Positions 8,927 to 26,064 are shown, counted from the stretch's first letter. The stretch: 64,000 nt of DNA from an uncultured Bacilli bacterium (GCA_934095865.1 CAKOKU010000002.1:57495-121494); one strand, 5' to 3'. Translations and numbers: made by a program. The notes: generated by a model not told the origin, from the letters alone.

Positions 8927-9010
8927 TTTCGGTTGTACTTAAAAAAGCATTCAAAACCATATTATTGAAAAATTATGAATATGATATATTTTTAATTAGA
9001 AATTTAAAAA

Positions 9011-9045
9011 GGACTCACTCTTATTTAAAATTGTGAATCCTTTTT
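9011..9045. terminator. putative bidirectional hairpin between convergent genes
   Basis: ggactcac...gtgaatcc imperfect 8-bp stem flanked by A/T runs, between the GH25 gene (+) and htrA (-). Confidence 0.3.
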
Positions 9046-9054
9046 ATTATGAAA

Positions 9055-10170
9055 CTATTTCTTTAATTTAATCTTTAATTCTTTTTCAAAACCATTACGA
9101 TTGATTTTTATAGTTACTGTGTCACCAACATTATGACGGTATAATTCATATTTTAATTTGGCTGAACTTGATACTTTAACATTATCAAATTCTAAAATTA
9201 TATCTTGTGATTTTAAGCCAGCTTCTTCAGCAGATGAACCACTTTCAACTTCGTAAACAACAACGCCACTAGTAACATTATCTGGAATATTCATACGGTA
9301 ATAACTTTCCGCAACAGATAATTCTATCATACTAATTCCTAAACGAGGTCTTGTAATATCTTCACCATTGATTATTTTAGTAGCAAATTCAATAGCGTCT
9401 TCGATTGGAATAGCAAAGCCCATTCCCTCAACACCGCTTGATACTAATTTCATGTTGGTTACGCCAATGACTTGACCATTAGAATTACATAAAGGACCAC
9501 CTGAGTTACCACTGTTAATAGCAGCATCTGTTTGTAAAACACGCATTATATAATCACTAGAGCTACTGTTAGTAGTTGAAACAGCAACCATTCTATCTTT
9601 TCCTGATAAAATACCTCTTGTTACAGTCCACGAATAAGTTGAACTATCTAAAGGGGCACCGACAGCGAAAGTTGTATCACCTACGCGGCCATCAGTACTT
9701 GAACCAATTTCAGCAACAGTCATATCTTTTGATGAAGTAAATGATAATACGGCAATATCTGCATATTTGTCGCCGCCAACCACTTCAACTTCCGTTGTTG
9801 TATCATCAGTAAAGACTATATTTACTTTTGATGAGCTTTCAATTACATGATAATTTGTCATGACATAATATTTATTATTATCTTTTTTAAAGATAAAACC
9901 GGTCCCAGTTGCTTGAAGCTTATTACTGCGGTAATTTTCTACAACTACTACGGAATCGTATACTTTTTCAACCGCATCAGCAATGCCATTTTCATTTACT
10001 GTTACTTCTTTTTCTAGTTTATTAACAACAGTCGTACTTGGATTAAGTCTAATTATTTCGTACATGGCAAAAGCACCAACGGCAATTAATAACAAGGAAA
10101 TAAATATTTTATTCCAAACATTATTTTTTTCACCAACTACTTTAGCATTAACATAATTTTTTTCATTCAT
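9055..10170 (-). CDS. htrA: HtrA/DegP-family membrane-anchored serine protease with PDZ domain
   Basis: N-terminal TM. Catalytic triad context TNYHVI (His), DIAVL (Asp), GNSGGPL (Ser). C-terminal PDZ-like region. Start ATG overlaps the stop of the upstream Abi_2 gene (TAATG). Confidence 0.85.
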   Translation of the reverse strand: MNEKNYVNAKVVGEKNNVWNKIFISLLLIAVGAFAMYEIIRLNPSTTVVNKLEKEVTVNENGIADAVEKVYDSVVVVENYRSNKLQATGTGFIFKKDNNKYYVMTNYHVIESSSKVNIVFTDDTTTEVEVVGGDKYADIAVLSFTSSKDMTVAEIGSSTDGRVGDTTFAVGAPLDSSTYSWTVTRGILSGKDRMVAVSTTNSSSSDYIMRVLQTDAAINSGNSGGPLCNSNGQVIGVTNMKLVSSGVEGMGFAIPIEDAIEFATKIINGEDITRPRLGISMIELSVAESYYRMNIPDNVTSGVVVYEVESGSSAEEAGLKSQDIILEFDNVKVSSSAKLKYELYRHNVGDTVTIKINRNGFEKELKIKLKK

Positions 10171-11120
10171 TATATATCCATCCTTACTATTTCTTTATAA
10201 TTTTGAGGGAATCCCATCGCATCCATTACTTTATCTATATTAATAGTTTTTAATTTTCCAGCTAGAATGTCTAACTCATATGATATTTCATTTACTAATA
10301 ATCTAAAATCTTCATTTCTTAGTATCTGTCTTAATATAATAATTAATGCAAATAAATCGTCTTTTCCATAAATATATTCACCGTTCATTTTTGGAATATT
10401 TAAGTAATAATGATATTTGTTATCTTCAACAACTCTTTGGGAGCGGTGATTATATAAGATATCTTCATGGGCACATAAGTTACGGTAATTAGACATAATT
10501 GGGAAATACTGACATAGTTGTTCAGAGGATAAGTTATAAATGTCAGCAATTGCTTTTTGATCTTCAGGTTTTAAAATATTATATAATTCACTTATGATAC
10601 CAAAAGATAAGACTTTTACTACAATCCATAAAGGTACATACCCATAATTTGTCATGTAGTGCATGGTTGCAGAATGTTGACCACCATTTACCCGAATTTG
10701 ACGTTGCATTTTTTTAATTAAATCATTAACTTGGCGTTTTTTAGTTGGGTCAGTATTAAAATTTTTAGGATTTAAATAATGTTTTTCTTTAATACCATAT
10801 TTTTTGGAGAGTTGGTATGAGAAAATACTTTTAGCATTATTTTCAACTATTAAGATGTTTTTGAAAATAATATTACGAACTTGGCGGTCGAAATTGAAAA
10901 CAGCATATAATTCGCGAAAATTAGTATTTGTAATGAATGTACGGTCTGTTTCACTTTTTATGAACAAGTGACGGTATCCCATTAAAAAGAAATAATTTTC
11001 TCTTAAAAGAATATCTTTAGCATACTCAATATCATCAATGATTAAACCTTTTTCTTCTAAAATGGTTACTTGTTCATCAATTGTTTTAAATGTCTTTTGT
11101 CTGGACGCCATATAATTCAC
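10170..11120 (-). CDS. Abi_2 (AbiD/AbiF-like) abortive-infection family protein
   Basis: 316 aa. N-terminus KTFKTIDEQVTILEEKGLIIDD...NYFFLMGY matches the conserved N-terminal signature of Abi_2/AbiD/AbiF proteins. Translationally coupled to htrA. Confidence 0.65.
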   Translation of the reverse strand: MNYMASRQKTFKTIDEQVTILEEKGLIIDDIEYAKDILLRENYFFLMGYRHLFIKSETDRTFITNTNFRELYAVFNFDRQVRNIIFKNILIVENNAKSIFSYQLSKKYGIKEKHYLNPKNFNTDPTKKRQVNDLIKKMQRQIRVNGGQHSATMHYMTNYGYVPLWIVVKVLSFGIISELYNILKPEDQKAIADIYNLSSEQLCQYFPIMSNYRNLCAHEDILYNHRSQRVVEDNKYHYYLNIPKMNGEYIYGKDDLFALIIILRQILRNEDFRLLVNEISYELDILAGKLKTINIDKVMDAMGFPQNYKEIVRMDI

Positions 11121-11198
11121 CTATTATTAAATTATATCACACCTGACTAGTAAATGATATCTAATTTAAGTGGTGGTTAAGTCAAAAAATTGTGAAGT

Positions 11199-11756
11199 TT
11201 AAGTGAAATAGTCGATTATCCCAGATGTGATGACTTCGGCGATTTGGGTCTGATATTCTTTGGTTTGTAACTTTTCTCGTTCGTTGGCATTAGAAATAAA
11301 GCCACATTCGACTAATACCCCCGGAAGCTTTAGGCGTCTATACATATATATATTAGGCATATTTTTTATAGAGCGGGGATAACTTATCTCGTTAAAACGT
11401 GCTTGAATTTTCTCGGCTAATTTTTTATTTTCTTCACCATAATAAAATATTTGACCGCCATAATATGATTTATCATCTAAATAATTAATATGAATAGAAA
11501 CATAGAGGTCTGCTTTGGAATTATTTATTAAATCAATACGATTGTCGAAGTCGCTTTTCTTTCTTCTCTTGGCATTAGGTGTTGATAAATCATAATCGCC
11601 ATCTCTAGTTAAAATTACACTAGCTCCATTTTTTATAATTGTTTCTTCTAGGGCATGACTAATTTGTAAGTTTAAGTCCTTTTCTAAAACATTTTGATAA
11701 CTGGTTCCTGGATCATCACCACCATGTCCAAGAATCGGAAAAGTCCAAATTATCAT
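11199..11756 (-). pseudogene. cwlD: 3' portion of split cwlD-like N-acetylmuramoyl-L-alanine amidase gene (Amidase_3)
   Basis: Encodes ...ILGHGGDDPGTSY...ADLYVSIHINY...LVECGFISN...IDYFT (Amidase_3, CwlD-like) but lacks signal peptide/TM. The missing N-terminus is found at 21872-21988. The listed ATG at 11756 is probably fortuitous element-derived sequence. Confidence 0.8.
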
Positions 11757-11764
11757 CTTTTATC

Positions 11765-13372
11765 TTAAAATTCTAAGTTCCATTCTATTTCAATATCTCG
11801 TGTTTTCGTTTCTTTATCATAAACTCCGACATAAACCTTATCAATAAATTCATCAACTATTACTTTGTTTAATTCTTTGATATGCTTATATTTTTTTAGT
11901 ATTTCATCAGCTTGTTTTCGTTCTTCTTTAACAACTTGTAGGTTATTTATCTCATTATCAATCGTTTCAACTCTTTTTGTCATTGATTCGATTTCTCTTA
12001 AATAATCACTAGACATCATACTAAACATATCTTCAGTAATAGTTCCTTTTACCTTATCTTCATATAGATTTCTATAAAAGGTTTTATTATCTTCTATTTT
12101 TTTGTTAAGATTATATTTTTCTTTTTCTAAAACTTTTATTATTTCACAATTACTTGTGTCTTGTTGATTTCTTCTATTATAGAGTTCTTGTAAATTATTT
12201 TGATCGTAGTAATTATCTAGTAAATCATTAATTGCATTAAGTAGTATAGTTTCTAATTCATCCATTCTAATTGCTTTGTTATTATCGCAAGTGTGATATT
12301 TTTTAGCACCTTTACATTGTAGGTATGCTCTTTTACCTGTCTTTTCTCCTTTAACATTGTACACATTTCTCATAAAAACCTTATCACATTCCATACAATA
12401 CACTTTTCTACTTAAATAATGTATCTCTCCTGTTTTAATCGGTTCTTGATGTGTACCTAGTATCTTTTGCACTTTGTTCCATGTTTCCTTATCAATAATA
12501 GCCTCGTGTGAGTTTTCTATTCTACACCAATCTTTTTCTGCTACTTTTTTAAACTTATGAACTTTATATCCCATTGAAGTTATTTTTCCTTGTACAAGAT
12601 TACCTATATAAAATTCATTTCGTAGCATTTGGGCTATGGTATCAGGATTCCATCTTACATTTTTATAATCACAATTAGAACATACAAATTTACTTCCTTT
12701 TTGTTTCTTATATACTGACCTTGGTGGAATATTATTGTTATTTAGATATTCACAGATTTTATGGTAACCATTTCCCTCTGCATACATTTGAAATATCTTT
12801 TTAACAACTTCAGCAGCCACAGGATCAACAACTAACTTGTGTTTATCTTCTTCACTTCTATCATAACCATAAGGAGCAAAACTTCCCATAAATAAACCAT
12901 CTTCTCGTTTATTCTTTAATGACTTTTTGATATTTGTTGATAAATCATCTAAATACCATTCATTGATAAGCCCATTTATTTGTCTTGATTTCTTGTTAGA
13001 TTCAATACTTGTATCAGCGTTATCAACAATACTTACAAATCTTACTCCCCATTCAATAAATTTATTGTGTAAATATCTTTCAATGACTTCCATATCTCTT
13101 GAAAATCTTGATTGACTTTTGCATAAAACTAAATTGATTTTACCACTTTCACAATCTTTGATAAGTCTTTCAAAGTCAGGTCTATAAGTTCCTGCTCCTG
13201 AAAAATCATCATCTGAATAAATATCTACAACATTCCATCCATTTTGATTAGCATATTTTAAACACATACTTCTTTGATTTACTATACTATCACTATCATC
13301 ATTTTTATTTATCTTATCTCTATCTTCATCAGATAATCTACAATATACACCTACCTTTTCTATCATAGCCAT
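11765..13372 (-). CDS. large serine recombinase (resolvase/invertase N-domain + recombinase + zinc-ribbon + coiled coil)
   Basis: 535 aa. N-terminal VGVYCRLSDEDRD (catalytic Ser context). Cys cluster CSNCDYK...CMECDK...CKGAKKYHTCDN. C-terminal coiled coil. Situated 9 bp upstream of the cwlD 3' fragment, as spoIVCA is in skin. Confidence 0.85.
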   Translation of the reverse strand: MAMIEKVGVYCRLSDEDRDKINKNDDSDSIVNQRSMCLKYANQNGWNVVDIYSDDDFSGAGTYRPDFERLIKDCESGKINLVLCKSQSRFSRDMEVIERYLHNKFIEWGVRFVSIVDNADTSIESNKKSRQINGLINEWYLDDLSTNIKKSLKNKREDGLFMGSFAPYGYDRSEEDKHKLVVDPVAAEVVKKIFQMYAEGNGYHKICEYLNNNNIPPRSVYKKQKGSKFVCSNCDYKNVRWNPDTIAQMLRNEFYIGNLVQGKITSMGYKVHKFKKVAEKDWCRIENSHEAIIDKETWNKVQKILGTHQEPIKTGEIHYLSRKVYCMECDKVFMRNVYNVKGEKTGKRAYLQCKGAKKYHTCDNNKAIRMDELETILLNAINDLLDNYYDQNNLQELYNRRNQQDTSNCEIIKVLEKEKYNLNKKIEDNKTFYRNLYEDKVKGTITEDMFSMMSSDYLREIESMTKRVETIDNEINNLQVVKEERKQADEILKKYKHIKELNKVIVDEFIDKVYVGVYDKETKTRDIEIEWNLEF

Positions 13373-13642
13373 TCCTCCAATACTAGAGAACAGCTATAAA
13401 TATTTGTAAATACAAGTATATTATATCTCATATTTAGGATTCTTTAAATGCTAGTTTTTGATTTTCTAAAATCATAATGACATTTAACAATTTATTATTA
13501 AATATACTTTTTAATTCATCATCAGTTCTATTTTCATTTGTCTTAAATTTATATTTTACATTATATACTACCTCCATTTTCTTACTTCCCCCTTTTTTCA
13601 TATTCTATAATCTAAATCCTCCAATCATACACATCTCTCCTT

Positions 13643-14119
13643 TCATTTATAATCTTTCATTAGTTCTTCCATTTCTTTTTGTTCTTCTTCATTTAATGGG
13701 ACTGAAACACATACTTCAGGGTGTTCCAGCCAATAAGGAATTATTTCTTTTCTTTTATTATTCTTTTTATATTTATTATTATTTATATTATGGGTGCAAT
13801 TGCTTGCACTATCATTACTGCAATTTTCTGCATCTTCATCTGCAACTTTTGTTGGTATCTTTTCCATATTTAAATATATTCTTCGTTTACTATTTTCATT
13901 TTTTACTATGATATAGCCTAGTTTCTTTAATTTAGACAATGAGTAATTTATCGTTCTTTCTGATGAATTTATATACTCTTTTAGATAATCATTAGTAGCA
14001 TAACAATACCCTTTATTTAAGGCAAGTGATATGATAAGACTTAAAACATCAATATCAGTTCTTGATAAGTTCTTATCTCTAAATAATATTCGTGGAGTTA
14101 TGATAAATTCACTAGTCAA
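13643..14119 (-). CDS. winged-helix DNA-binding protein (possible replication initiator/regulator of the element)
   Basis: 158 aa. N-terminal wHTH-like DIDVLSLIISLALNKGYCYATNDYLKEYINSSERTINYSLSKLKKLGYI. Confidence 0.45.
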   Translation of the reverse strand: MTSEFIITPRILFRDKNLSRTDIDVLSLIISLALNKGYCYATNDYLKEYINSSERTINYSLSKLKKLGYIIVKNENSKRRIYLNMEKIPTKVADEDAENCSNDSASNCTHNINNNKYKKNNKRKEIIPYWLEHPEVCVSVPLNEEEQKEMEELMKDYK

Positions 14120-14171
14120 TTTTAAAATAATTATTCTCCTTAAATCTAAAATGATATTGGACTTTTTCCTA

Positions 14172-14188
14172 GCCTATTAAAAATAGGC
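14172..14188. promoter_or_regulatory. perfect inverted repeat GCCTATT-AAA-AATAGGC (candidate operator)
   Basis: 7-bp arms with 3-bp spacer, ~55 bp upstream of the wHTH gene start. No T-tract follows, so it is unlikely to be a terminator. Confidence 0.3.
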
Positions 14189-14314
14189 AAAGTTATCCCC
14201 AGAACATAATTTTAAATCCTGTCCCTAGGATTGAATGAAGTTTATTCTATTTTGATAGAAAAGGTACTAACATAAGCCTATATATCTTACTGTACCATAT
14301 CTACTAGGAGTTAT

Positions 14315-14578
14315 TTAACAACCTAGTAGATTTATTGTGTACATTCCTGTATCATATTCCTTGTAGATTAGATACTTTAATTGTTCCAATATTTCAAGAT
14401 TCCTTTTTAAACCTTTATTTTTAATTTTTACTACTTGTTGTAATTCTCCAACATTTAAATCTGTGATAATCCTATCTTGTCCTTTAGCGTAGATATATGA
14501 ATATATCAGTTTTCCCTCAGGTTTGATTCTCTTATCCTTTAAAATCTTTGTTGGCATTTCCTGATGTCTTTTATTCAT
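14315..14578 (-). CDS. small winged-helix DNA-binding protein
   Basis: 87 aa. Pattern similar to the adjacent wHTH protein (IYSYIYAKGQDRIITDLNVGELQQVVKIKNKGLKRNLEILEQLKYLI). Confidence 0.4.
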   Translation of the reverse strand: MNKRHQEMPTKILKDKRIKPEGKLIYSYIYAKGQDRIITDLNVGELQQVVKIKNKGLKRNLEILEQLKYLIYKEYDTGMYTINLLGC

Positions 14579-14753
14579 TCATAGATTTCCTCCTTTCTTG
14601 TCAATTAACATTTTAAGTATAATGTTAACTTTCAGAAACATCTATAATATACATAATAATTACTAACTTGTCAACACTTTTAGAAACAATTTTAATTATT
14701 TTGTTGATTTTAGTTAACATATATGCTATTATGTACTTGTGAGGTGTATTACA

Positions 14754-15257
14754 ATGCAAGAAAAAAAGATTGGCGAAATTATTGCCGAAGCACGAGAAAA
14801 AGCAGGTTATTCGCAAAGGCAACTTGCAAAAGAAGCAAATATTAGTAATGCCGAATTATCTAAAATAGAATCAGGAGAAAGAGAAATACCAAATCCTAAA
14901 ACATTAAGAAAAATAAGTAAATATATAAATGTTAATTATAATGAAATGATGTATAAAATAGGTTTAGGTATGGAAGTCAGTTCATTAAACCCATTTATTA
15001 AAGCCTATTATGAAAAGATGAATTTAGATGAACTGAATGAGGCTGAAATCAATGTTTTAGGTAGTATCGAAAATTCAAGAAAACTTGTTGATTCGTGCAA
15101 AGAGAATTTAAAAAAGAAAAACATATTAGAAAACGAAAAAGAACTACTACTACATACAATAGAAGATACTGAATATCAAATCAATACTTCTAGAGAAATT
15201 GTAAATTTGATTCAAAGTTTAAAAGTAAAGGAGAGAAACAAAAATGCAAAAAAGTAA
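14754..15257 (+). CDS. XRE-family HTH transcriptional regulator
   Basis: IGEIIAEAREKAGYSQRQLAKEANISNAELSKIESGER is a canonical HTH_XRE. Divergent from the wHTH gene, a switch-like arrangement. Start taken at MQEKKIGE. Confidence 0.75.
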   Translation: MQEKKIGEIIAEAREKAGYSQRQLAKEANISNAELSKIESGEREIPNPKTLRKISKYINVNYNEMMYKIGLGMEVSSLNPFIKAYYEKMNLDELNEAEINVLGSIENSRKLVDSCKENLKKKNILENEKELLLHTIEDTEYQINTSREIVNLIQSLKVKERNKNAKK

Positions 15258-15690
15258 AATTTTAATAAGAAATATTGGAATCATATTATTAAATATTTTT
15301 ATGGTAGTAAGCTTGGTATTAGTTTTATTTCAGAAAAATGATTATGGCTATAATTTATATTGGGTTATTAGTCCATTTCTAATGGTATTAGTGTTAATGG
15401 TGATAGGTAGGTGGAGCATAAGAGGATTAAATGTTGATAGAGAAGAATCCCAAGTGATACAACGATCTTTTGATGATACAACAACTATATCAACAGTAAT
15501 CTTTGGAATAATATATCTAACTATACAATTTATAGACTATGTAAAAAATGGTCTAACAAATAATTCAATAATTATTATAATCTTCTTCGTTGTCATGATT
15601 ACCTATGAACTTATAACCTACTTAGCTATATATGTAGCCATAAGAGATACTGCAAGATTATTAGAGAAAACATATAATAAGAAAAAATAG
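15244..15690 (+). CDS. hypothetical multi-pass membrane protein
   Basis: 148 aa, 3-4 predicted TM helices. Overlaps the 3' end of the XRE gene (operon). Confidence 0.45.
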   Translation: MQKSKILIRNIGIILLNIFMVVSLVLVLFQKNDYGYNLYWVISPFLMVLVLMVIGRWSIRGLNVDREESQVIQRSFDDTTTISTVIFGIIYLTIQFIDYVKNGLTNNSIIIIIFFVVMITYELITYLAIYVAIRDTARLLEKTYNKKK

Positions 15691-15876
15691 TCTTTTTCGC
15701 TTTTCGTAAGATTAGCGATTAGACTATTCTTTTATAAAAAGGCGAGGCACGTTTTGTTTGCTTTAGAAAATGAAAGTGGCGATAGCCTTTTTCTTTTTAT
15801 GTAACGATAGTGAAATAAAAAGGCAACTATATTACATTGTGAAACTTTGTAATATAAGTTGCTTCTAGGGTTTCCA

Positions 15877-15892
15877 AAGGGAATATTCCCTT
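15877..15892. promoter_or_regulatory. 16-bp perfect palindrome AAGGGAATATTCCCTT
   Basis: Seen directly, in a 350-bp non-coding region inside the element. Candidate protein-binding site. Confidence 0.3.
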
Positions 15893-16047
15893 GGCACACA
15901 TCGTTATTGGCTTGCCAATACCGTAGTGTGTTACTATAATGAAATTATAGTCTATAAAATCGAGCCATTAGTTGCTTAATTTCTTTTGGCTCGGTTTTTA
16001 TTTTAAACTGTTTTATAGATTGTAATTTGTAATTATTTCTATATATG

Positions 16048-18147
16048 CTATTTAGTATTTATTTTTTTACAAATTGGACATCCTCTACCTCTATTTCTAT
16101 TTGATATAATTGCTTCCCACTCATGTCCTTTGTTACATTTCCACCATACCTTTTTTCCACTGTTTGATGCAACCATATCTGGTTTTAAATCACCATTTTT
16201 TTCATAATTCCATTCTTTTGTAAGTGTTGGATTAATAGTTGCAAGATCATTATATCCTTTAAGTATTTGTTTATTTTTACAAACTGGGCATCCTTTTCCT
16301 TTATTTCTATTATCAATACTTGCTTCCCACTCATGTCCTTTGTTGCATTTCCACCATACCTTCTTATTAGCATTTGCTGTAACCATATCTGGTTTTAAAT
16401 CACCATTTTTTGAATAATTCCATTCTTTTGCAAGTTCTGGATTAATAGTTGCAAGATCATTATATCCTTTAAGTATTTGTTTGTTTTTACAAATTGGACA
16501 GTCATTTCCATTTGTCCTATTTGATATAGTTGCTTCCCACTCATGACCTTTGTTACATTTCCACCATACCTTTTTATTACTTCCTAAAGTTACATCTTTA
16601 GGGGTTAATGATGCGTTCTTTTCATAGTTCCATTCTTTCGCAAGTATTGGATTAGTAGTTGCAAGGTCATTATACCCTTTATGTATTTGCTTGTTTTTAC
16701 AAATTGGACATCCTCTGCCTTTATTTCTATTTGATATATAGGTTTCCCACTCATGACCTTTATTACATTTCCACCATACCTTTTTATTAGCATTTACTGT
16801 AACCATGTCAGGTTTTAAATCACCATTTTTTTCATAATTCCATTCTTTTGCAAGTGCTGGGTTAATAGTTGCAAGATCATTATACCCTTTAAGTATTTGT
16901 TGACTTGCACAAATTGGACAACCAACTCCATCTGTTCTACTATATATACTTGCTTCCCACTCATGACCTTTATTACATTTCCACCATACCTTTTTTCCAC
17001 TGTTTGATGCAACCATATCTGGTTTTAAATCACCATTTTTTTCATAATTCCATTCTTTTGCAAGTTCTGGATTAATAACCATTAATGAATGTTTCTTTTG
17101 TCTTTTTATAAATGATGTATATATTAAAATACGGTCTCTATCCAAATTAACATCTATGGTTTTATTAAAATGTTTTACTATATGTTCGATGGCAAATTTA
17201 ATTCCTTCATCAGAATATGTACATGGTATTATTTTTAAATAATCATTTTCTATAATTTCTTCTTTGAAATCTTCCTTTACTCTAAAAAGAAGAATTTCAT
17301 TTTCTTTACAAAGTTTATTTTTTCTTTCATCTTTTTCTGGATTCTGATGCCAAAATATCCCATCATATTCAACAGCAACTTTTTGTGATGGAATAAAAAT
17401 ATCTAACTCCATTTTCAAATGGCGATCACCATTTATAGCATCTGGAAACAATTTTTTTAAATAAAAATAAATTGCCTGCTCTGGAAAAGAAGTTTGTAAT
17501 TCTCTTGCACAAATTGGGCAACCATTACCTTTATTTCGACTAGATATAATTGCTTCCCACTCATGCCCTTTAACACATTTCCACCATACTTTTTTATCAC
17601 TATTTGGCTTTACCATATTTGGTTTTAAATCACCATTCTTTTTGTAATTCCATTCTTTTGCGAGTGTTGGATTTATAGTTGCTAGATCATTATACCCCAT
17701 GATTGATTGCCTACCTGAGCAAAAAGGACATCCAATGCTCTTACTTCTACTTTTTATACAGGCTTCCCATTCATGTCCTTCAGAACATTTCCACCATACC
17801 TTCTTACTGCTCCCTATGGTTACATCTTTAGGGGTTAATGGTGCATTCTTTTCATAATTCCATTCTTTTACTAAATCCGATCTTTTGTCAAATAGACTGC
17901 CATTTTTTTCTACTAAGGCTTTAATCCTATTTTTTCCTCTTTTAGAAAGTGAGCATATCGGACAGCCTCTACCTTTATTTCTATTTGATATACTTGCTTC
18001 CCACTCATTTCCACATTCGGAACATTTCCACCATACCTTTTTATCGCTTCCTGTTGTTAATAACTTTGGATTTAATCCTTCATTTTTTGAATAATTCCAT
18101 TCTTTCATTAGATATTCATTATCGATTAAATATTTTTTGTCTTTCAT
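16048..18147 (-). CDS. multi-zinc-ribbon (treble-clef) repeat protein with central Vsr/DUF559-like PD-(D/E)xK nuclease domain
   Basis: 699 aa from MKDKKYL (GGTGA-type RBS upstream). Eight ~57-aa repeats LAKEWNYEKNGDLKPDMV...KKVWWKC.KGHEWEA.IS.R.KG.GCPIC, three before and five after a core ELDIFIPSQKVAVEYDGIFWHQ...ILLFRVKE resembling Vsr/DUF559 endonuclease folds. Confidence 0.6.
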   Translation of the reverse strand: MKDKKYLIDNEYLMKEWNYSKNEGLNPKLLTTGSDKKVWWKCSECGNEWEASISNRNKGRGCPICSLSKRGKNRIKALVEKNGSLFDKRSDLVKEWNYEKNAPLTPKDVTIGSSKKVWWKCSEGHEWEACIKSRSKSIGCPFCSGRQSIMGYNDLATINPTLAKEWNYKKNGDLKPNMVKPNSDKKVWWKCVKGHEWEAIISSRNKGNGCPICARELQTSFPEQAIYFYLKKLFPDAINGDRHLKMELDIFIPSQKVAVEYDGIFWHQNPEKDERKNKLCKENEILLFRVKEDFKEEIIENDYLKIIPCTYSDEGIKFAIEHIVKHFNKTIDVNLDRDRILIYTSFIKRQKKHSLMVINPELAKEWNYEKNGDLKPDMVASNSGKKVWWKCNKGHEWEASIYSRTDGVGCPICASQQILKGYNDLATINPALAKEWNYEKNGDLKPDMVTVNANKKVWWKCNKGHEWETYISNRNKGRGCPICKNKQIHKGYNDLATTNPILAKEWNYEKNASLTPKDVTLGSNKKVWWKCNKGHEWEATISNRTNGNDCPICKNKQILKGYNDLATINPELAKEWNYSKNGDLKPDMVTANANKKVWWKCNKGHEWEASIDNRNKGKGCPVCKNKQILKGYNDLATINPTLTKEWNYEKNGDLKPDMVASNSGKKVWWKCNKGHEWEAIISNRNRGRGCPICKKINTK
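16050..18100. repeat. intragenic tandem ~171-bp coding repeats with long near-identical stretches
   Basis: For example 16141-16230 and 16981-17070 are essentially identical. Several alternate-frame ORFs in the six-frame track are artefacts of this repetition. Confidence 0.8.
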
Positions 18148-18258
18148 TTTCTCACCTTGCTTCAACAAATTATTATTTCTAGCTAAATTACATAAATAAT
18201 TATACCAAAAAAAACAACTCATATACTAGCAGTTGTTATTTAGTTTCGTCTTACTTTT

Positions 18259-19536
18259 TTACATACTTATTTCATAATCATTCTTTTCTTTTTCTTTAGA
18301 TTTTTTACTAGTTTTTAAATAACTAGGTGCTTTTACATAATCAAATAATTCATCTTCTTTGGTAGTTCCTCTTAATATTTTAACAACATCATTCATATCA
18401 AAATCGTTGTTATCAAAATAGTCTTTTATTTCAGTTGTAGTGGCTTCTTTCGTAGGTTCATTACCAATTTGTAATAATTTTCTGAAAAAGTGTTTTATAG
18501 CCTCCAAAATGGCTTTTAAATAGTCTTTAAGATGGTTATTCTCTTTTGTTAAGTTTTGATTTCTTGTAGTAAGTGCTTTTACTTCTCGTTGTAGATTTGC
18601 ATTTTCTTTTTCTAATGTTTGATGACTTTTACTAAAAGTATTTACCTCGTTAAATAATTGTTCCATTTTAGGTTGAAATTCCATAACCTTTTTAGTTTCT
18701 TTTATTACATTTTGCATACTAGCAAAAGTATCTTTTCGTACCTTTACATATTCTTTATCTATTAAAGTATTTTTAGTAGTTTTCATTTTTTCTTCAAATT
18801 CATTCATAGCATTATCAAGATTTTTATTTATAGTAGTTACTTTAGTTTCATAATATCTTGTTGTTTTCTTGAATTCCTTTACTTTTTGATGTTTTCTATC
18901 ACTACCCTTAATACCTCTTTCTAATTCAAAACCATTTTCTCTTAATCTTAAATTATAAATATCTTGCAATTCAGATAAGTGTATATTGTCTCTAATATAT
19001 TGCTTTTTAGAGATAGTAAACCTTTCTGTATTTGTTCTTTTATCAAACTTCTTAATAAGGGGTACAACAACACAATGAATATGAGGTGTTAGTTCATCCA
19101 TGTGTATTGTTGCGTGTAATATTTGTTCTTTCTTATAACCTAAATCATTGTAAACAAAATCCATACAAGTATCAGCCCATCTCATTATTTCATCTTCACT
19201 CATATTATCAAAAAATTTATGTGTTGCAGTAAACATGAGTTCATCAGCTACAACACTTTTAGATTTATTTAACATTTCATTAAATGTCTTTTTTCTTTCA
19301 GGTCGTTCATTTTTCATACGTTCATTATGCTCTTTTTCATAATCTTTTACAAGCAATTTAAAACCCTTAACATATTTCTCTGCTAAGGGTACTAATTCTA
19401 TATTATTTTTAGTTAATTCTAATTTAATATCTTTATTACTTTTATATGCTTTTTTCTCTCGTTTATTGTGTGATCCTATTTGTGCTAAATCGTTTATAGT
19501 CATTATTGGTTGACTTCTAAATATTCCATAATTCAT
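18259..19536 (-). CDS. mob: MobV-family (Mob_Pre) mobilization relaxase
   Basis: N-terminus MTINDLAQIGSHNKRE (HN.R motif); HIHCVVVP (HxH motif); long coiled-coil C-terminal half. Typical plasmid/IME Pre/Mob architecture. Confidence 0.75.
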   Translation of the reverse strand: MNYGIFRSQPIMTINDLAQIGSHNKREKKAYKSNKDIKLELTKNNIELVPLAEKYVKGFKLLVKDYEKEHNERMKNERPERKKTFNEMLNKSKSVVADELMFTATHKFFDNMSEDEIMRWADTCMDFVYNDLGYKKEQILHATIHMDELTPHIHCVVVPLIKKFDKRTNTERFTISKKQYIRDNIHLSELQDIYNLRLRENGFELERGIKGSDRKHQKVKEFKKTTRYYETKVTTINKNLDNAMNEFEEKMKTTKNTLIDKEYVKVRKDTFASMQNVIKETKKVMEFQPKMEQLFNEVNTFSKSHQTLEKENANLQREVKALTTRNQNLTKENNHLKDYLKAILEAIKHFFRKLLQIGNEPTKEATTTEIKDYFDNNDFDMNDVVKILRGTTKEDELFDYVKAPSYLKTSKKSKEKEKNDYEISM

Positions 19537-19607
19537 TTATCGTTCCTCTCTTTCTTAAAAAATTGCATAATAAAAGACACTTCACTATTAAAGTATCTTT
19601 TTGAAAT

Positions 19608-20120
19608 CTATTTTTTTTTGCTTATTCTCTTTACTCTTGAAGATATAAATCTATTTTGCTTAACAAACGAAAAAGCAAAAAGTATTGTCAGTAATGTAAA
19701 CATTACCAAAATTAAAATATCTTTATTAATCAAACTTGAAATTTCAAACATCACCATTATTTTTAACGCCAATTCAATTAGCATTAAAGTACATAAGCTT
19801 CTATACATATTACAATCTTGATTTAAAATTTCTAGTTTGTCATCTTTCTTATTTGCTTCTATATATTTATCATAAGGTTCTTTTTTCAATTTCCATATTT
19901 TAACTATTATCTTCTCAATTACTAATGAGGATATTCTACTAATTATAATACCTATAAAATATGCTTCAAAAAATGAATAAATTAGACTATCTATAATTAG
20001 ATTTTTTTCCATTATTTGACCACTAATAATTAAAAATAAATAACCTGGTACTAAATAGTTAAATATGTGATAGCTACTGATTTTCTCTATTATTTTATCC
20101 ATTTTAATTAATCCTTTCAA
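19608..20120 (-). CDS. hypothetical membrane protein (4 TM)
   Basis: 170 aa hydrophobic. Overlaps the upstream gene by 17 nt (operon with 20104-20535 and the MBL gene). Confidence 0.4.
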   Translation of the reverse strand: MKGLIKMDKIIEKISSYHIFNYLVPGYLFLIISGQIMEKNLIIDSLIYSFFEAYFIGIIISRISSLVIEKIIVKIWKLKKEPYDKYIEANKKDDKLEILNQDCNMYRSLCTLMLIELALKIMVMFEISSLINKDILILVMFTLLTILFAFSFVKQNRFISSRVKRISKKK

Positions 20121-20535
20121 ACGAATAGTTAATCTTATCTTTTACCGAAGTATAAGAACAGTTATATAAATCAAGCTCCGAATTAGTTATTTCAAAATCA
20201 AAACCATATTCTTTTCCATTTAATTTATCAGTTGTAGTATCAGTAAAAAACATATCTTTATTAGGAAACTTTATTTTTTTTACTAATCCTTGATAACAAG
20301 TAATCATCACTATATCATGTTCTTTTGGTTCTTCATTCATTAAAAAACTATAAACCTGGTTATTATGTCCATTTATGAATACTACATTACCATAATTTTC
20401 TGGTATTGACCTTAATTCAATATAATTGTCAAAGAAAAAAGGAATTGTATAAATCTTAAAAACATCATATAGATATTCTTGTCTAGATCTTATTTCTTCA
20501 AAAGTTATTTTTTTTCTTAAAAGGATATATCTCAT
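20104..20535 (-). CDS. hypothetical protein
   Basis: 143 aa, no recognisable motifs. Overlaps both neighbours. Confidence 0.35.
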   Translation of the reverse strand: MRYILLRKKITFEEIRSRQEYLYDVFKIYTIPFFFDNYIELRSIPENYGNVVFINGHNNQVYSFLMNEEPKEHDIVMITCYQGLVKKIKFPNKDMFFTDTTTDKLNGKEYGFDFEITNSELDLYNCSYTSVKDKINYSFERIN

Positions 20536-21397
20536 AACAATTTAAAGTTCCCCTTCTTTCTGCTTTAAATGAATTTTGATTTATACTAAAAGCACCATTT
20601 TTAGTATTCATAATTCGATGTCCCTTAACCTCTAAGTTGTCAGAGCCACCATTAATGTCAGCACCTTTATTATCAGAAACAATATACAACACATCGTTTC
20701 GTTTTTCATTTTTTTCAAATACTTTCTGAGCCATATCATTGTTTCCATGGTGAGGTAATTGAATAGCATCATAATTTCTAGTTTTATCATCAAAAGCAGC
20801 AAAGTCGGCATCTCCAGTTAACAATAACTTTTGTCCATTAAAATTTACTTCTAATTGAACGCTTATAGCATTCATTATCGTACTGCTATCTATATTATTA
20901 CTCTCATTTGGGGTAAATTGTTTAGCAACAGCATCAATAAAATATTCTGTTGCAGGTCCTACAATCTTTAAATTGTCAGATAAATTATTATCATCATCTA
21001 AAGCATCCTTTAAATTTTGTCCTGATAAAGAATAAATGTTACTATACATATCTTTAATATTCTGGGTTAAGGAGTCCCTAGTAACTCTATTATCCTCTAT
21101 TTTATCAAAGATTGCATCTTTATATTTTAATAACAATAATGTTGTAATAGAATTAACTACACCATTATCAACTAATTTTGGTATTCCATCAAAATGATCG
21201 CTATCATTATGTGATAAAACTAAATCAACTTTATCTATATTTTTTTCCTCTAAATAGTGTAGTACTTGATCTGCCAATTCTTCAGAACCACAATCGTACA
21301 CTGTAACACTACCATTATCATTAATAATAAAGCAGTCTCCATAATCAACATTATCTTTTTGCTCCTTAGGAGCAAGAACTTTTATTTCTAAATTCAT
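20498..21397 (-). CDS. ComEC-type metallo-beta-lactamase fold protein
   Basis: Start MNLEIKV with GGAGG RBS. LVLSHNDSDHFDG (H.D.DH variant of HxHxDH); TGDADF; LPHHGNND (the HHG motif of ComEC/Rec2-type MBL domains). Confidence 0.6.
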   Translation of the reverse strand: MNLEIKVLAPKEQKDNVDYGDCFIINDNGSVTVYDCGSEELADQVLHYLEEKNIDKVDLVLSHNDSDHFDGIPKLVDNGVVNSITTLLLLKYKDAIFDKIEDNRVTRDSLTQNIKDMYSNIYSLSGQNLKDALDDDNNLSDNLKIVGPATEYFIDAVAKQFTPNESNNIDSSTIMNAISVQLEVNFNGQKLLLTGDADFAAFDDKTRNYDAIQLPHHGNNDMAQKVFEKNEKRNDVLYIVSDNKGADINGGSDNLEVKGHRIMNTKNGAFSINQNSFKAERRGTLNCYEIYPFKKKNNF

Positions 21398-21466
21398 ATT
21401 ATTCCTCCTCTTTTTAAAAATAAAATCAGAGGTAGATACCAACTTCATTAAACTAATTCAAAATAA

Positions 21467-21510
21467 AACATATTTTACCTCCCTTCCTGTTGAAGAAAAG
21501 GGTAAAATAT
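21467..21510. promoter_or_regulatory. 13-bp-arm inverted repeat AACATATTTTACC...GGTAAAATATGTT upstream of the MBL operon
   Basis: Seen directly. Sits in the 5' region of the minus-strand operon. Candidate operator or structured RNA leader. Confidence 0.3.
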
Positions 21511-21871
21511 GTTAACTACCAATTTTTTATGTTTGACATTTTATCAAAAAATGTGTAATATTATAGTAGGAATTGATTTCATATTTTTCCAATCAGTTCT
21601 TCAAACATTTCGTTATTGTTTGTCTTAATTCGTTGGTAGTTAGTATCTACCGATAAGGAAATATGCTTATTGCCTGAGCATATTTTTTTCTTGTCTTCTT
21701 GTCTTAATTGACATATATCCTTATAGACAAAATATATCATAAAATCACATGATTGGCAATAGATATATAACAGTGCTAATTATTTTTATGAAAAAAGATA
21801 CTTTTTTATCAAAGTACCTTAATTTCTTGTATTTACTTATCTTTATAGCTATTATTTTATTTTTGGATTTT

Positions 21872-21988
21872 TCAGTATCCTCCATGGCCAACATCAATAA
21901 CTATTAGTTTTCCACTTAATGGTAAGGAAGCTCTCGCACACGTTATGGATAGGAAAAAACATAAGATTAACATTATTATCTTTCTCAT
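21872..21988 (-). pseudogene. cwlD: 5' portion of split cwlD: signal peptide/TM and start of amidase domain
   Basis: Minus-strand translation MRKIIMLILCFFLSITCARASLPLSGKLIVIDVGHGGY* matches the B. subtilis CwlD N-terminus (...SLPLSGKIIYLDPGHGG...). It ends exactly where the 3' fragment at 11756 begins (..ILGHGGDDPG). Too short to appear in the ORF track. Confidence 0.8.
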
Positions 21989-22064
21989 ACTAAAACTTAT
22001 GTATAACGTGTAAAAATAATGTTGATTTTATTATATTTGATAATATTTACAAAAAGAAACCAGG

Positions 22065-23693
22065 GTGTTAAAATTATTAGCAAGTGAGGTTAAAATGAAT
22101 TGGAATAAATTTTTCAAAGTGTTTTCAAGTTTAGTTTTAGCTTTTAGTGTACTTTTTTTAGGATACATATTTTTTTCTAATGACACAGATATTTATCATA
22201 AAAGAAATCTAAATCGATTAGAAGAATATAAAAATATGAAGTACGATGAAAGTAATGATGAAAAGACACCCATTAAGGTTAAAAGAACTTTCACAACTAC
22301 CATTGATGATACTTTTGTACAAGATGATTATTTAGCGTTTTATGTTCCACAAAGTTATGTTAATGTGTATATAGATTCCAATCTTATTTATCAAGTAAAT
22401 AATAATGAAGTAAAAAGTGTTGGTAATAATTATGTGTTGATACCTATTACTGAAAATGTCGTTGGAAAGGAACTAAAGGTAGAAATTTATCCCGTATATA
22501 AATTCTTTGCTGATCGGGATATAACCTTTTATAAGGGGCCTTTAGAAAATATATATAATAAAGAAATAGGTAATAATATTTTAGAATTACTGTTAGGTTC
22601 TGTTTGTGTTTTGCTGGGCTTTATATTATGCTGCTTATCAATTTATTTATTGCTAAGTAAAAATTATAAAGGAAAATTGAGTTATTTAGGTGTTTTTGTA
22701 TTAAGTATTGGTTTATGGAAAATATGTGATATGCGTTGTACACCTTTATTATTCCCAAATTATCCAACAATTATTTCGTATATATCTTTAACTATGCTTT
22801 ATGTTGCACCACTTTGTTTTTTAGCTTCTATTTATACTGAATTAGATAGTAGGGGCTTTAACTTAATTAAATTAGCTTTAGGAATTGCAATATCATTACC
22901 AATGATTGTTATGATAATGGATTTGACTGATATATTAGACATGCGTAATTCCTTAGTTTTATGTCATATTGCTTTAGTCTTTTATGTTATTGTGCTAATA
23001 TATTATTGCATAAAAAATTATATCATAAACAAAAAAATAAGTTCTGCCAGTTGGTTGGCTTTAGCTTTAATATTAGGGGTTGCTAGCGATTTAATCACTT
23101 ATTATGTTAATGATTCTTCATCTAATACAATTTTCTTACTTGTAGCTATTATAATCAGTGTCATGATATCTACTATAAACGTTATAAAAGAGTTGGAATC
23201 TAAATCAGTAATAGATACTTTAACTGGTTTAAATAATAATAATGCTTGTAAAGAAAAGCTAGAGAATGAAGATATTTTAGCCAAAGATATTGGTCTTATA
23301 GTATTTGATATAAATGGGCTTAAAGAAGTTAATGATACCTATGGTCATGCGTGCGGTGATGAATTTATAAAAGATTTTGCTAATATTTTAAGAAAATGTA
23401 TGGTTAAAAATTCGTTTATAGGGCGTTTTGGTGGTGATGAGTTTATTGTCATCTTATATTCATGTTCAGAAAAAAAGATTAAAGATTTTTTACTTGATGT
23501 TAAAGAAAAAACAAAGCGAATTAATAAAGAATTACATAATACTAAGTTAAGTTATTCGTGTGGATATGCCTTATCTACAACTGAGAATAGTATAACAATG
23601 AAAGAATTATTTAATACGGCTGATGAGAGAATGTATAATGAGAAAAAGGCTTATCACAAAAAATATGATAGTATTAAGAAGACAAATAATTAG
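22065..23693 (+). CDS. 7TM sensor diguanylate cyclase (7TMR-DISM-like N-terminus + GGDEF)
   Basis: N-terminal signal and extracytoplasmic domain, about 7 TM helices, C-terminal GGDEF domain with RFGGDEFIVIL. Start may be the downstream MNWNKFF. Confidence 0.75.
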   Translation: MLKLLASEVKMNWNKFFKVFSSLVLAFSVLFLGYIFFSNDTDIYHKRNLNRLEEYKNMKYDESNDEKTPIKVKRTFTTTIDDTFVQDDYLAFYVPQSYVNVYIDSNLIYQVNNNEVKSVGNNYVLIPITENVVGKELKVEIYPVYKFFADRDITFYKGPLENIYNKEIGNNILELLLGSVCVLLGFILCCLSIYLLLSKNYKGKLSYLGVFVLSIGLWKICDMRCTPLLFPNYPTIISYISLTMLYVAPLCFLASIYTELDSRGFNLIKLALGIAISLPMIVMIMDLTDILDMRNSLVLCHIALVFYVIVLIYYCIKNYIINKKISSASWLALALILGVASDLITYYVNDSSSNTIFLLVAIIISVMISTINVIKELESKSVIDTLTGLNNNNACKEKLENEDILAKDIGLIVFDINGLKEVNDTYGHACGDEFIKDFANILRKCMVKNSFIGRFGGDEFIVILYSCSEKKIKDFLLDVKEKTKRINKELHNTKLSYSCGYALSTTENSITMKELFNTADERMYNEKKAYHKKYDSIKKTNN

Positions 23694-23714
23694 GCTTTAA
23701 GCCTATTTTTTTAT

Positions 23715-23744
23715 GCAAAAAACCTCACAGCCAAAGCCATGAGG
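23715..23744 (-). terminator. rho-independent terminator downstream of rpsI
   Basis: On the minus strand, CCUCAUGGCUUUGGCUGUGAGG hairpin followed by UUUUUU. Confidence 0.55.
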
Positions 23745-23762
23745 AATGAAACTATAAATATA

Positions 23763-24182
23763 TTATCTCTTACTGAATTGTGGAGCACGACGAGCTTTTT
23801 TAAGTCCGTATTTCTTACGTTCTTTAACACGAGGATCTCTCTTAACAAAACCAGCTTTTTTAAGAACTTTACGATAACTATCTTCTCTTGTTTGATCAGT
23901 ATTAGCATCGAATTCTAATAATGCTCTTGTAATAGCATGACGAATAGCGCCAGCTTGACCTGAGAAGCCACCACCTTTAACTGTAACTTCAATGTCGAAT
24001 TTATCTTCATTACCAGTTGCAGCTAATGGTTGTTTAATATCCATTACTAAAGTTTGATAAGGCATATATTCATCAACAGGTGTTCCATTAACAATAATAT
24101 TACCTTTACCTAGAGTTAATCTAGCTTGTGCAGTAGAACGTTTTCTACGGCCAGTTCCAGTCCATATTTTCTTATCTGTCAT
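23763..24182 (-). CDS. rpsI: 30S ribosomal protein S9
   Basis: 139 aa. GTGRRK near the N-terminus; C-terminal RRAPQFSKR. Confidence 0.9.
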
Positions 24183-24194
24183 AAATTATACCTC

Positions 24195-24626
24195 CTATTT
24201 AACTTCTAACTTTTCTGGTTTTTGAGCAACTTGTTCATATTCTGAACCAGCATAAACAAATAACTTACGATACATTTGTCTTCCTAAAGGTCCTTTTGGT
24301 AACATACCTTTAACAGCTCTTTCTACCATTTCTTCTGGATACTTTGTTATCATTTCTTGGGCAGTTCTTTCTCTTAAGCCACCAGCATATCTACTATGAT
24401 TGTAGTACATCTTATCATTTAATTTATTGCCAGTTAATACAACTTTACTAGCATTAATAACGATAACATAGTCACCACAGTCAATGTGTGGAGTATAAGT
24501 TGGCTTATGTTTACCTTTAAGAACAGTAGCAACCTTAGTTGCAAGACGTCCTAAAGTTTGGCCTTCAGCGTCAATAACATACCATTTACGGTCAACAGTT
24601 TCTTTTTTTTGCATGAATGTATTCAT
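24195..24626 (-). CDS. rplM: 50S ribosomal protein L13
   Basis: [19 protein letters not shown]-terminal signature. Start taken at MNTFMQ. Confidence 0.9.
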
Positions 24627-24837
24627 ATTATATCCTTTCAATTATACTAATCATTATTGGATTTCCCACGTCAAATAATTTTTGTATAAATAAAATGTAC
24701 CAGTTAAAAGTATATAGTAAGTAGGTAATAAAGTCAAATAAAACTTTGATTATTTTAGTAAATTTGACATTATTAGAAAATTTTATTATTATAAATCTTA
24801 ATTTAAAAACACCAACTAAAATAATTGGCGTTCTAAC

Positions 24838-25377
24838 TTATAAGTCATTAATATCTAATAACTGTTGAAAATCTCCTTTTTCAAAAAGATTATCATCTAA
24901 TCTAGTAATAATATTACCTTTTTTTACCTTACCGTCAGTTACATAAATAATAGTTGGAACTTTTGTAACTTGGACTTCATCTAGGCCTAATAAATTGTTT
25001 ATTGCAGCAATTTTATTATCATCATTTTGTAAAGAATCGATGTTGATATAGTAAAATTCTGACTTTAATTTATATTGTTTAATTAAGCTTTTTAAGCTTT
25101 TCTCTAAATTATAGATTTCTTTATTTCCTGTGTAAGATAAATAAATGAAATAATTTCCATCTTTATTTTTTAGTTCACTTAAATCTTCATTTATATTATA
25201 AGACTTGGTAACTAATTTCTTTTTAACTAGATAAGAAGTGTTTGCTTTATTTGCATCAAATTCTTTATACAAAGAATATCCTAAAAAAGAAATAGTAAAT
25301 ACCCCTAAAATAATAACGATTAGTATAGTATACTTTTGATACTGCTTAGGAAGTTTCTTTTTTGCCATAATATTCAA
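24838..25377 (-). CDS. hypothetical N-terminally membrane-anchored protein
   Basis: 179 aa. Basic N-terminus, one TM helix, hydrophilic extracytoplasmic domain. No motifs recognised. Confidence 0.4.
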   Translation of the reverse strand: MNIMAKKKLPKQYQKYTILIVIILGVFTISFLGYSLYKEFDANKANTSYLVKKKLVTKSYNINEDLSELKNKDGNYFIYLSYTGNKEIYNLEKSLKSLIKQYKLKSEFYYINIDSLQNDDNKIAAINNLLGLDEVQVTKVPTIIYVTDGKVKKGNIITRLDDNLFEKGDFQQLLDINDL

Positions 25378-26015: not shown

Positions 26016-26064
26016 CATAGGCACTAATGATATCTTAACATAGCTTATTTTTAGGAGGATATGT

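Follow-up and report, generated by a model that had tools for sequence, protein, structure and literature searches.

The DNA analyzed here is a 64,000-nt stretch from an uncultured Bacilli bacterium (GCA_934095865.1, CAKOKU010000002.1:57495-121494), hereafter the window, and all coordinates count from its first letter. An open reading frame (ORF) on the minus strand (16048..18147), with its ATG at 18147-18145 and its stop codon at 16048-16050, encodes a 699-residue protein in which eight DUF4379 zinc modules are arranged around a nuclease core of the Vsr/EDxHD type. The gene belongs to an integrative mobilizable element of ∼10.2 kb (11712..21904, borders approximate within about 50 nt) and has a MobV relaxase gene directly upstream (18259-19536, minus strand), in agreement with a first-pass annotation, made from the sequence alone, that had placed it on a mobile element next to a relaxase. 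The identical 699-aa protein is present on 19 metagenome or genome contigs.

Eight stretches of the protein match the Pfam family DUF4379 (PF14311; score 564.7 bits, gathering cut-off 24.5, E-value 6.7e-174), a profile result that assigns the modules to this family and agrees with the three N-terminal and five C-terminal zinc-ribbon repeats first counted from the sequence alone. Pfam describes DUF4379 as a "probable treble clef zinc finger". Modules r1 (aa 4-67, 17947..18138), r2 (aa 83-146, 17710..17901) and r3 (aa 153-216, 17500..17691) precede a core of ∼140 residues. Modules r4 (aa 353-416, 16900..17091), r5 (aa 423-486, 16690..16881), r6 (aa 493-556, 16480..16671), r7 (aa 563-626, 16270..16461) and r8 (aa 633-696, 16060..16251) follow it, all on the minus strand. 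The length of ∼57 aa initially given to the repeats corresponds to the Pfam model, which spans 56 aa of each period; the true period is 70 aa, or 210 nt (Tandem Repeats Finder: 4.9 copies, 81% match). The description of the modules as near-identical does not hold, as their protein identity is 52-88% overall, 62-88% among r3-r8 and 52-59% between r1 or r2 and the others. The repeat motif, first written with W.W.C at its start, is WWxCxxGHEW(6)RxxGxGCPxC, and in r1 a CxxC replaces Cx3H at the first knuckle. The long r1-r2 spacer, with a remnant linker before r2, is the scar of a deleted module, one that a 758-aa allele retains.

To describe the family, 1,289 modules from the 120 best homologs were aligned. 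Positions W14, N19, W36, W37, W45, R52, C58, P59 and C61 are near-invariant. At the first metal knuckle, Cx3H is the commonest form (79% of modules), a shifted CxH accounts for 8% and CxxC for 3-4%; the second knuckle reads CxxC in about 99%. These compensating variants of the first knuckle suggest that metal ligands have been swapped rather than lost, and every module of the window protein keeps a Cys/His plus CxxC predicted metal site. The most variable positions (6, 9, 21, 25, 26, 29, 32, 40, 48, 50, 54 and 56) are set in an otherwise rigid framework around the invariant R52.

An AlphaFold model of two modules was very confident both within the modules and in their relative orientation (predicted local distance difference test, pLDDT, 96.5; predicted template modeling score, pTM, 0.80). 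Each modeled module consists of a beta-hairpin carrying the first knuckle, a short helix around R52 and the CPxC knuckle; secondary structure alone does not decide between the labels treble clef and zinc ribbon for DUF4379. Foldseek matched the model to mt-SAF33, mS66 and 6yxx_E2 (probability 1.00, E-values 7e-07 to 7e-06), and the DUF4379 sequence profile reached kinetoplastid mitoribosomal proteins at E-values of 2e-10 (2.3e-10 at best) to 9e-07. Solved structures of DUF4379 are limited to trypanosome mitoribosomal proteins and assembly factors (mt-SAF33, mS66 and a large-subunit factor; 6SGA, 7AOR, 6HIV, 6YXX), none of them DNA-bound. In contrast to the window protein, these are eukaryotic organellar ribosome components or assembly factors with one or two modules and no nuclease domain. 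A literature search found no paper on mS66 together with zinc.

Both arrays are basic (pI 9.3-9.4, net charges +17 and +22), and the core is neutral. Multivalent nucleic-acid binding by the arrays, as proposed in the first-pass annotation, is plausible by analogy, since the arrays are basic and the DUF4379-related CapR module binds DNA in a zinc-dependent manner, recognizing a specific site and requiring its four cysteines (PMC8096241). Such properties would also suit a domesticated nucleic-acid-binding protein, that is, a CapR-like repressor or an RNA or ribosome binder whose nuclease fold would be a scaffold or have RNA as its substrate. CapR is itself a homing-endonuclease-derived zinc module acting as a repressor (PMC8096241), all solved DUF4379 domains are found in mitoribosomal RNA-protein assemblies, and the long, basic arrays are predicted to be rigid. 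This alternative is nevertheless very unlikely. Diverse homologs keep every Vsr/EDxHD catalytic residue with little or no variation, which speaks for catalysis; where the substrate of a Vsr-family enzyme is known, it is DNA; and the core is missing from only 4 of the 120 best homologs.

The core occupies aa 217-352 (17092..17499, minus strand), and the central block ELDIFIPSQKVAVEYDGIFWHQ...LLFRVKE, singled out at the outset as nuclease-like, lies between the arrays at aa 247-292. Its AlphaFold model (pLDDT 89.7) has the order alpha-beta-beta-beta-alpha-beta. The top PDB matches in Foldseek are the homing endonuclease I-Bth0305I (3r3p, probability 1.00) and Vsr (1cw0 and 1vsr, 0.99), and the DUF559-like protein 3hrl follows at 0.84; the prediction is thus a nuclease fold with catalytic residues and not a non-nuclease fold. 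A single core sequence searched against the PDB returned only noise, and a profile built from 39 diverse cores was required to reach I-Bth0305I. The best PDB sequence for this profile is the 3r3p catalytic domain (E-value 0.0022), with the E/N-D/H/D/K residues aligned.

The EDxHD residues of I-Bth0305I (PMC3239194) correspond to residues of the window protein as E170 to E223, D196 to D249, N208 to D262, H213 to H267 and D222 to D273. The composite E-D-x-H-D motif can accordingly be read in the core as E223 (17479-17481), D249 (17401-17403), D262 (17362-17364) together with E260 (17368-17370), H267 (17347-17349) and D273 (17329-17331), with K276 at 17320-17322, all on the minus strand. E260 occupies the position of an extra acidic residue in the EDxHD family, which is the F62 position of Vsr. 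Among the 39 diverse cores, S220, D249, E260, D262, G263, K276 and R289 are invariant, E223, H267 and E292 reach 90% conservation or more, and D273 is the majority residue only; Y229, E247, Y261, P253 and D338 are further conserved residues. The predicted active site is a Vsr/EDxHD variant, with E, D, E/D, H, D and an invariant lysine on the next helix, and not a classical D...(D/E)xK site. Of the initial assignment to a Vsr/DUF559 PD-(D/E)xK endonuclease, the Vsr-type restriction-endonuclease-like fold is retained, and the classical site is not. The curated models were not passed either. TIGR00632 (Vsr; 17.3 bits against 97.85, E-value 0.004) and PF03852 (Vsr; 13.5 bits against 27, E-value 0.067) stay below their cut-offs on the core, and DUF559 (PF04480) and MTES_1575 (PF18741) do not match it even at E-values up to 10; PF18741 is recorded on some homologs. 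The core model also had weak matches to chains Xr and Xl of the large subunit of the Toxoplasma mitoribosome (9i05, probabilities 0.77 and 0.44), a curious observation beside the kinetoplastid mitoribosomal identity of the solved DUF4379 relatives.

The likeness to Escherichia coli Vsr (1VSR, 1CW0) extends to the fold and the catalytic Asp/His arrangement, and the F-W-H tripeptide of Vsr (GCFWHHH) recurs here as GIFWHQ. A mismatch- or lesion-specific nickase that repairs DNA in the manner of Vsr, for the host or for the element, could account for these features. Several observations make this explanation scarcely tenable: the curated Vsr models score far below their cut-offs, the tryptophan of the tripeptide is not conserved across the family, and the gene is part of the accessory cargo, is carried by none of 80 related elements and has no cognate cytosine methyltransferase gene alongside. 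The zinc-module sequence of the window protein also amounts to sixteen times the sequence that Vsr has outside its core.

The window protein is a member of a very large family, and its domain combination has been noticed before. With the whole protein as query, more than 7,984 database proteins match. The core occurs in 116 of the top 120 homologs, with 1-10 modules on its N-terminal side and 0-13 on its C-terminal side, and is lacking in the other four. The core profile matches 28,400 cluster representatives at an E-value of 1e-3 or below and 1,218 at 1e-30 or below, and in these matches the start of the core usually falls at a multiple of about 70 aa. The NCBI name for relatives is only "zinc-ribbon domain-containing protein". 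A "putative restriction endonuclease" of the Marseilleviridae Lausannevirus and Insectomime (PMC5513546), in which four DUF4379 domains accompany a restriction-endonuclease-like domain, is likened to the window protein by its description; it differs in coming from a eukaryotic giant virus.

The closest annotated or studied relatives are homing endonucleases, an ancestry absent from the first-pass annotation. The PHROG families phrog_559, phrog_681 and phrog_3339 (endonuclease/homing endonuclease) span both repeats and core, and tblastn found relatives in 87 phage records. Bacillus phages AR9 and PBS1 are among them, with an intron-encoded "Hef-like homing endonuclease" inside the beta' gene of their virion RNA polymerase. 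AR9 g146, which carries Pfam CapR and DUF4379 matches, aligns collinearly with the window protein by BLASTP (E-value 7e-20) across three zinc modules and the core. The module-to-core junction is the same in both, with a module ending in CPxC that runs straight into an S..E...ExDIFIPS...E(Y/F)(D/N)G..WH core. CapR/DUF4379/DUF723-like modules combined with an EDxHD/Vsr domain have been described for AR9/PBS1-type intron proteins, and thousands of unannotated relatives have been called "a large unrecognized outgroup" of EDxHD homing endonucleases (PMC12350094, Nucleic Acids Research 2025). With g146 and the 3r3p profile match as sequence similarities to the EDxHD/Vsr-like homing endonucleases, the best reading of the alignments is that the window protein descends from this lineage.

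The window protein differs from these relatives in architecture and setting. The phage proteins carry three to five modules followed by a C-terminal nuclease, whereas the window protein has three and five canonical DUF4379 modules on either side of the nuclease. They reside in group I or group II introns of the RNA polymerase gene, whereas the window gene is a free cargo cassette; and they have E(F/V)NG where the window protein has EYDG. I-Bth0305I (3R3P, PMC3239194), the best PDB match by both profile and fold, is a protein of 266 aa encoded in an intron of a phage recA gene, with two N-terminal NUMOD/helix-turn-helix (HTH) elements in place of zinc modules and dimerization that is important for activity. 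Identity between I-Bth0305I and the window core is ∼17% over 76 aligned columns.

This kinship makes a purely selfish, free-standing homing endonuclease the main rival to a role in exclusion or defense. Such an enzyme would cut alleles, of the element or of another target, in which its gene is missing, and repair would copy the gene into them, neither element nor host gaining from it. A long target site would explain how genomes are spared without a methylase. At one position of a conserved backbone the gene is present in some elements and absent from others, and it is autonomous, a cassette under its own promoter. A decay cycle of homing genes would also predict split or frameshifted copies, and such copies occur on some viral contigs. 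Compared with intact, near-identical copies, these (L113:4741-6849, against L114:4741-6837; L118:5806-6862) are divided into two ORFs, and are possibly pseudogenes or sequencing errors. An apparent four-copy arrangement in the gut phage MT835483 was discarded, as it consists of repeat-on-repeat matches within one 709-aa gene and gives no multi-copy signal.

The genomic position of the gene bears directly on this alternative. A set of 80 related elements, with relaxases 55-95% identical to that of the window element, was compared (L017-L096), and a DUF4379 gene was found in none of them. Both borders of the slot that holds the nuclease are kept in 43 of the 80: backbone homology ends just past the relaxase stop codon (18,249-18,272) and resumes past the nuclease stop codon (15,934-16,059), and the intervening 0.47-5.7 kb consists of unrelated cargo from 113 protein clusters. 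This comparison identifies the site just downstream of the MobV relaxase gene as a cargo hotspot of the element family. A fixed backbone role for the nuclease, an idea that came from a variant element (L012), was ruled out by its absence from all 80 relatives. Since the 113 unrelated clusters share the same slot borders, the presence/absence polymorphism reflects general cargo exchange and is not specific to homing.

Other properties also speak against selfish homing. The gene is not located in an intron or intein, nor beside a conserved target gene; the general cargo slot is its residence instead. The three nearest homologs (84%, 70% and 68% identical) lie in unrelated contexts with no shared flanks, whereas homing reuses the same site. 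The proteins, at 700-1,200 aa, are far above the typical size of homing endonucleases. Furthermore, the catalytic residues are retained in the 39 diverse cores and dN/dS, the ratio of nonsynonymous to synonymous substitution rates, is 0.2, which indicates little decay among chromosomal copies. Selfish homing is therefore judged unlikely, while carrying more weight than any other rival.

The unit that moves is a one-gene cassette (15998..18210, minus strand), the sole DNA shared with the closest homolog (L106, 84% protein identity), whose context is unrelated and whose homology starts at window position 18210. The shared DNA comprises an extended -10 promoter-like element, the ribosome-binding site, the ORF and ∼50 nt past the stop codon. 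The putative promoter element, TGGTATAAT (18199..18207, minus strand), was read from the sequence; it is absent from the output of a consensus scan and lies within the DNA common to the closest homolog. A Shine-Dalgarno sequence, AGGTGA (18152..18157, minus strand), is positioned 4 nt ahead of the ATG at 18147. As only 15,998-18,210 is shared with L106, the transferable unit would be one gene with its own promoter and no partner, and no partner, immunity or methylase gene is present in the cassette.

Both ends of the cassette are marked by candidate hairpins on the minus strand. An A/T-rich hairpin, AACAACT...AGTTGTT followed by a T run (18213..18237), lies 3' of the relaxase stop codon and is probably the relaxase terminator and the upstream border of the cassette; the scan missed it because it has fewer than three G-C pairs. 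At the other end, CCGAGCCA...TGGCTCG followed by ATTTTAT (15954..15994), 3' of the nuclease stop codon, is a weak candidate for a terminator at the downstream cassette and slot border, with a long loop, and was not picked up by the scan. A longer frame of 724 aa, starting at 18222, was rejected as unlikely to be used, because its ATG falls inside the upstream hairpin and promoter region and has no ribosome-binding site. Small ORFs of 62-77 aa in other frames and on the opposite strand within the gene were also set aside, as they recur with the 210-nt period and are thus by-products of the repeats.

The single-gene composition of the cassette also bears on a role in addiction, which the first-pass annotation had offered alongside defense. 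In this scenario the nuclease would be a post-segregational killing toxin that damages the chromosome of cells losing the element, and its location on a small mobilizable element near HTH regulators would be in keeping with it, as would the small HEPN genes, one of them overlapping, that come after two homologs (P0002 and P0003). The nuclease gene moves without a cognate antitoxin or immunity gene. The 148-aa membrane protein (15244-15690, plus strand) and HTH_3 regulator (14739-15257, plus strand) encoded nearby were considered as immunity partners and rejected, since they are backbone genes conserved in relatives that lack the nuclease and carry other cargo. Toxin-antitoxin families gave no significant match, the only signal being MazE below threshold (E-value 0.019, 15.1 against 108 bits). 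Addiction is thus extremely improbable.

To follow the evolution of the gene, the window allele was compared with the allele on variant element L012. Backbone proteins of the two elements are 86-97% identical with dN/dS values of 0.04-0.14; the nuclease protein is 68% identical, with a dN/dS of 0.20 and a difference of one module. Among the module positions, the 20 most variable family-wide have a dN/dS of 0.68 and the rest one of 0.08. Synonymous divergence is 1.25 in the repeats and 0.66 in the core, an excess that points to module shuffling over simple descent. Positive selection was ruled out as a claim, dN/dS being below 1 in every class, and relaxed or diversifying constraint at defined module positions is all that can be claimed. 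This pattern of variability fits, without proving it, a model in which each module makes its own nucleic-acid contacts.

A bolder form of this model sees DUF4379 arrays as a modular scaffold for reading DNA, every 70-aa unit of which touches a few base pairs. Contacts would be made at positions 48, 50, 53, 54 and 56 around Arg52, together with positions 21, 25, 26, 29 and 32. Proteins of this kind would be natural counterparts of zinc-finger and transcription activator-like effector (TALE) nucleases with the cutter in mid-array, which bacteria and mobile elements could retune by swapping, adding and deleting modules. We regard this proposal as a long shot. If true, a code relating modules to sequence would offer a new programmable nickase or nuclease platform of interest to genome engineers.

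The genes found in company with the nuclease provide circumstantial support for defense or exclusion, through the slot cargo of relatives, the genes of the element that match PDC-M48, a candidate defense system in PADLOC, and HEPN or SIR2 neighbors. The slot cargo of relatives includes type II restriction enzymes, restriction-modification control proteins, ZorD-like SNF2+Mrr proteins and a 5-hydroxymethyldeoxyuridine (5-hmdU) DNA kinase, and also HTH regulators, integrases, VanZ, GNAT, peptidases, tRNA synthetases, a permease and a 1,749-aa protein. Beyond the relaxase, the element encodes a PDC-M48A-like membrane protein of 170 aa (19608-20120, minus strand; PADLOC match, E-value 2.8e-44) and a PDC-M48B-like metallo-beta-lactamase-fold protein of 316 aa (20498-21448, minus strand; PADLOC match, E-value 1.5e-20), with a 143-aa protein that has no match encoded between them. 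A literature search found no paper on PDC-M48. The variant element carries an ApeA-type HEPN gene in place of the PDC-M48 cargo.

Neighborhoods were sampled in about ten contexts for the homologs. The 70% and 68% homologs are on other elements, and a small HEPN-family gene directly follows each (L009:10530-11150 and L011:3295-3735, respectively); one of the two overlaps the stop codon of the homolog, the other is HEPN_AbiU2, and the window copy is without such a neighbor. A Clostridium perfringens homolog adjoins a SIR2_2 gene near smpB. The remaining contexts are ICE-like (integrative and conjugative element), prophage-like or uninformative. Vsr-like domains are known to act as effectors in predicted defense systems (PMC11090510).

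Taken as a whole, our tentative reading is that the encoded protein is a DNA endonuclease with zinc-module arrays, of homing-endonuclease ancestry, whose gene is carried as a cargo cassette and serves exclusion or defense; we would put its chances somewhat short of even. The molecular part, an active endonuclease that reads a DNA site, is probable. The two basic arrays of three and five modules would lie along the DNA and read an extended site, with base contacts made through the few positions that differ between modules, and between the arrays the central domain would nick or cut by a Vsr-like use of Mg2+. Because there is one active site, a monomer would nick, and a double-strand break would need dimerization, as in I-Bth0305I. 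The element would use the nuclease against foreign or competing DNA, for exclusion or defense, rather than for intron-style homing. This role is favored because the gene travels as cargo and turns up in unrelated contexts that share no flanks, because its catalytic residues are kept under purifying selection and because defense-type genes are in its company.

Two systems offer precedents for such re-use of homing-endonuclease-derived proteins. Odn of phage ICP1 (PMC8263062) is a nuclease of homing-endonuclease descent that provides sequence-specific immunity against a rival element, and CapR of the Vibrio cholerae PLE employs a homing-endonuclease zinc module as a sequence-specific DNA binder. 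Both differ from the window protein in belonging to the T5orf172/GIY-YIG nuclease superfamily, in having a single DNA-binding domain and in their Gram-negative phage or satellite hosts, and the functional analogy is one that we infer.

Several points weigh against this interpretation. No activity has been reported for any DUF4379-array nuclease, the solved DUF4379 domains all sit in RNA-protein complexes and not on DNA, and the similarity to I-Bth0305I and Vsr is modest (fold E-values of 0.01-0.05, profile E-value of 0.0022). The single Vsr-type site suggests a nick, a poor mechanism for restriction unless the enzyme dimerizes. With no methylase or immunity gene, sparing of self DNA would have to come from a long or rare target, from specificity for modified DNA or from regulation. 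The two classes of module positions behind the dN/dS values were defined from the same family, and every class lies in the range of constraint. No family of PADLOC-DB 2.0 matches the nuclease protein at an E-value of 1 or below, and slot occupancy is weak evidence for defense because the cargo of relatives is mixed. The defense or addiction role suggested at first is therefore possible and not established, in view of the PADLOC result and of a cassette with no partner, immunity or methylase gene.

If exclusion of phages or rival elements is true, the gene would represent a new type of single-gene, methylase-free defense with a homing-endonuclease origin. The analysis connects bacterial proteins of the long-array form with the EDxHD/Vsr lineage of homing endonucleases, places the gene as a one-gene cargo cassette in a defined slot and identifies the module positions that vary. 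It thereby provides a clean and complete example of a very large family whose members are biochemically unstudied.

The carrier element is a recently active integrative mobilizable element, as copies of the full 10.2 kb, 99.3-99.96% identical, occur in at least four different genomic flanks. It is known only from metagenomes and metagenome-assembled genomes, and a near-identity DNA search with window positions 8,000-28,000 found no match in plasmid and phage collections. Relatives of the relaxase indicate that the hosts are uncultured small-genome gut Bacilli, with metagenome-assembled genomes labeled Tenericutes, Mollicutes or Erysipelotrichaceae. On the recombinase side, the element encodes a large serine recombinase (11765-13372, minus strand) and an HTH_36 protein (13643-14119, minus strand), and a gene for an 87-aa protein lies between the HTH_36 and HTH_3 genes.

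In at least four contexts the element abuts an Amidase_3 gene on the recombinase side, represented in the window by a fragment at 11199-11756 (minus strand). Both junctions (about 11,700-11,740 and 21,880-21,905) carry CCxCCATGxCCAA, the reverse complement of G-H-G-G codons, which suggests that the target of the serine recombinase is the conserved motif coding for GHGG close to the 5' end of genes for N-acetylmuramoyl-L-alanine amidase. A search for exact repeats as an att core returned 6-mers only. Just outside the element on the same side, an Abi_2 (abortive infection) gene (10170-11120, minus strand) is followed by a trypsin/PDZ protease gene, both annotated from the identical contig L002. 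In one metagenome (L001:1-4454) the identical element is located ∼1.8 kb downstream of csn2, which ends a type II-A CRISPR-Cas locus (Cas9, Cas1, Cas2, Csn2), with a type I restriction-modification pair and a reverse transcriptase on the opposite side. In one 99.3% identical copy (L005:8351-9671) the relaxase is split into ORFs of 268 and 152 aa, through either a frameshift or an assembly error.

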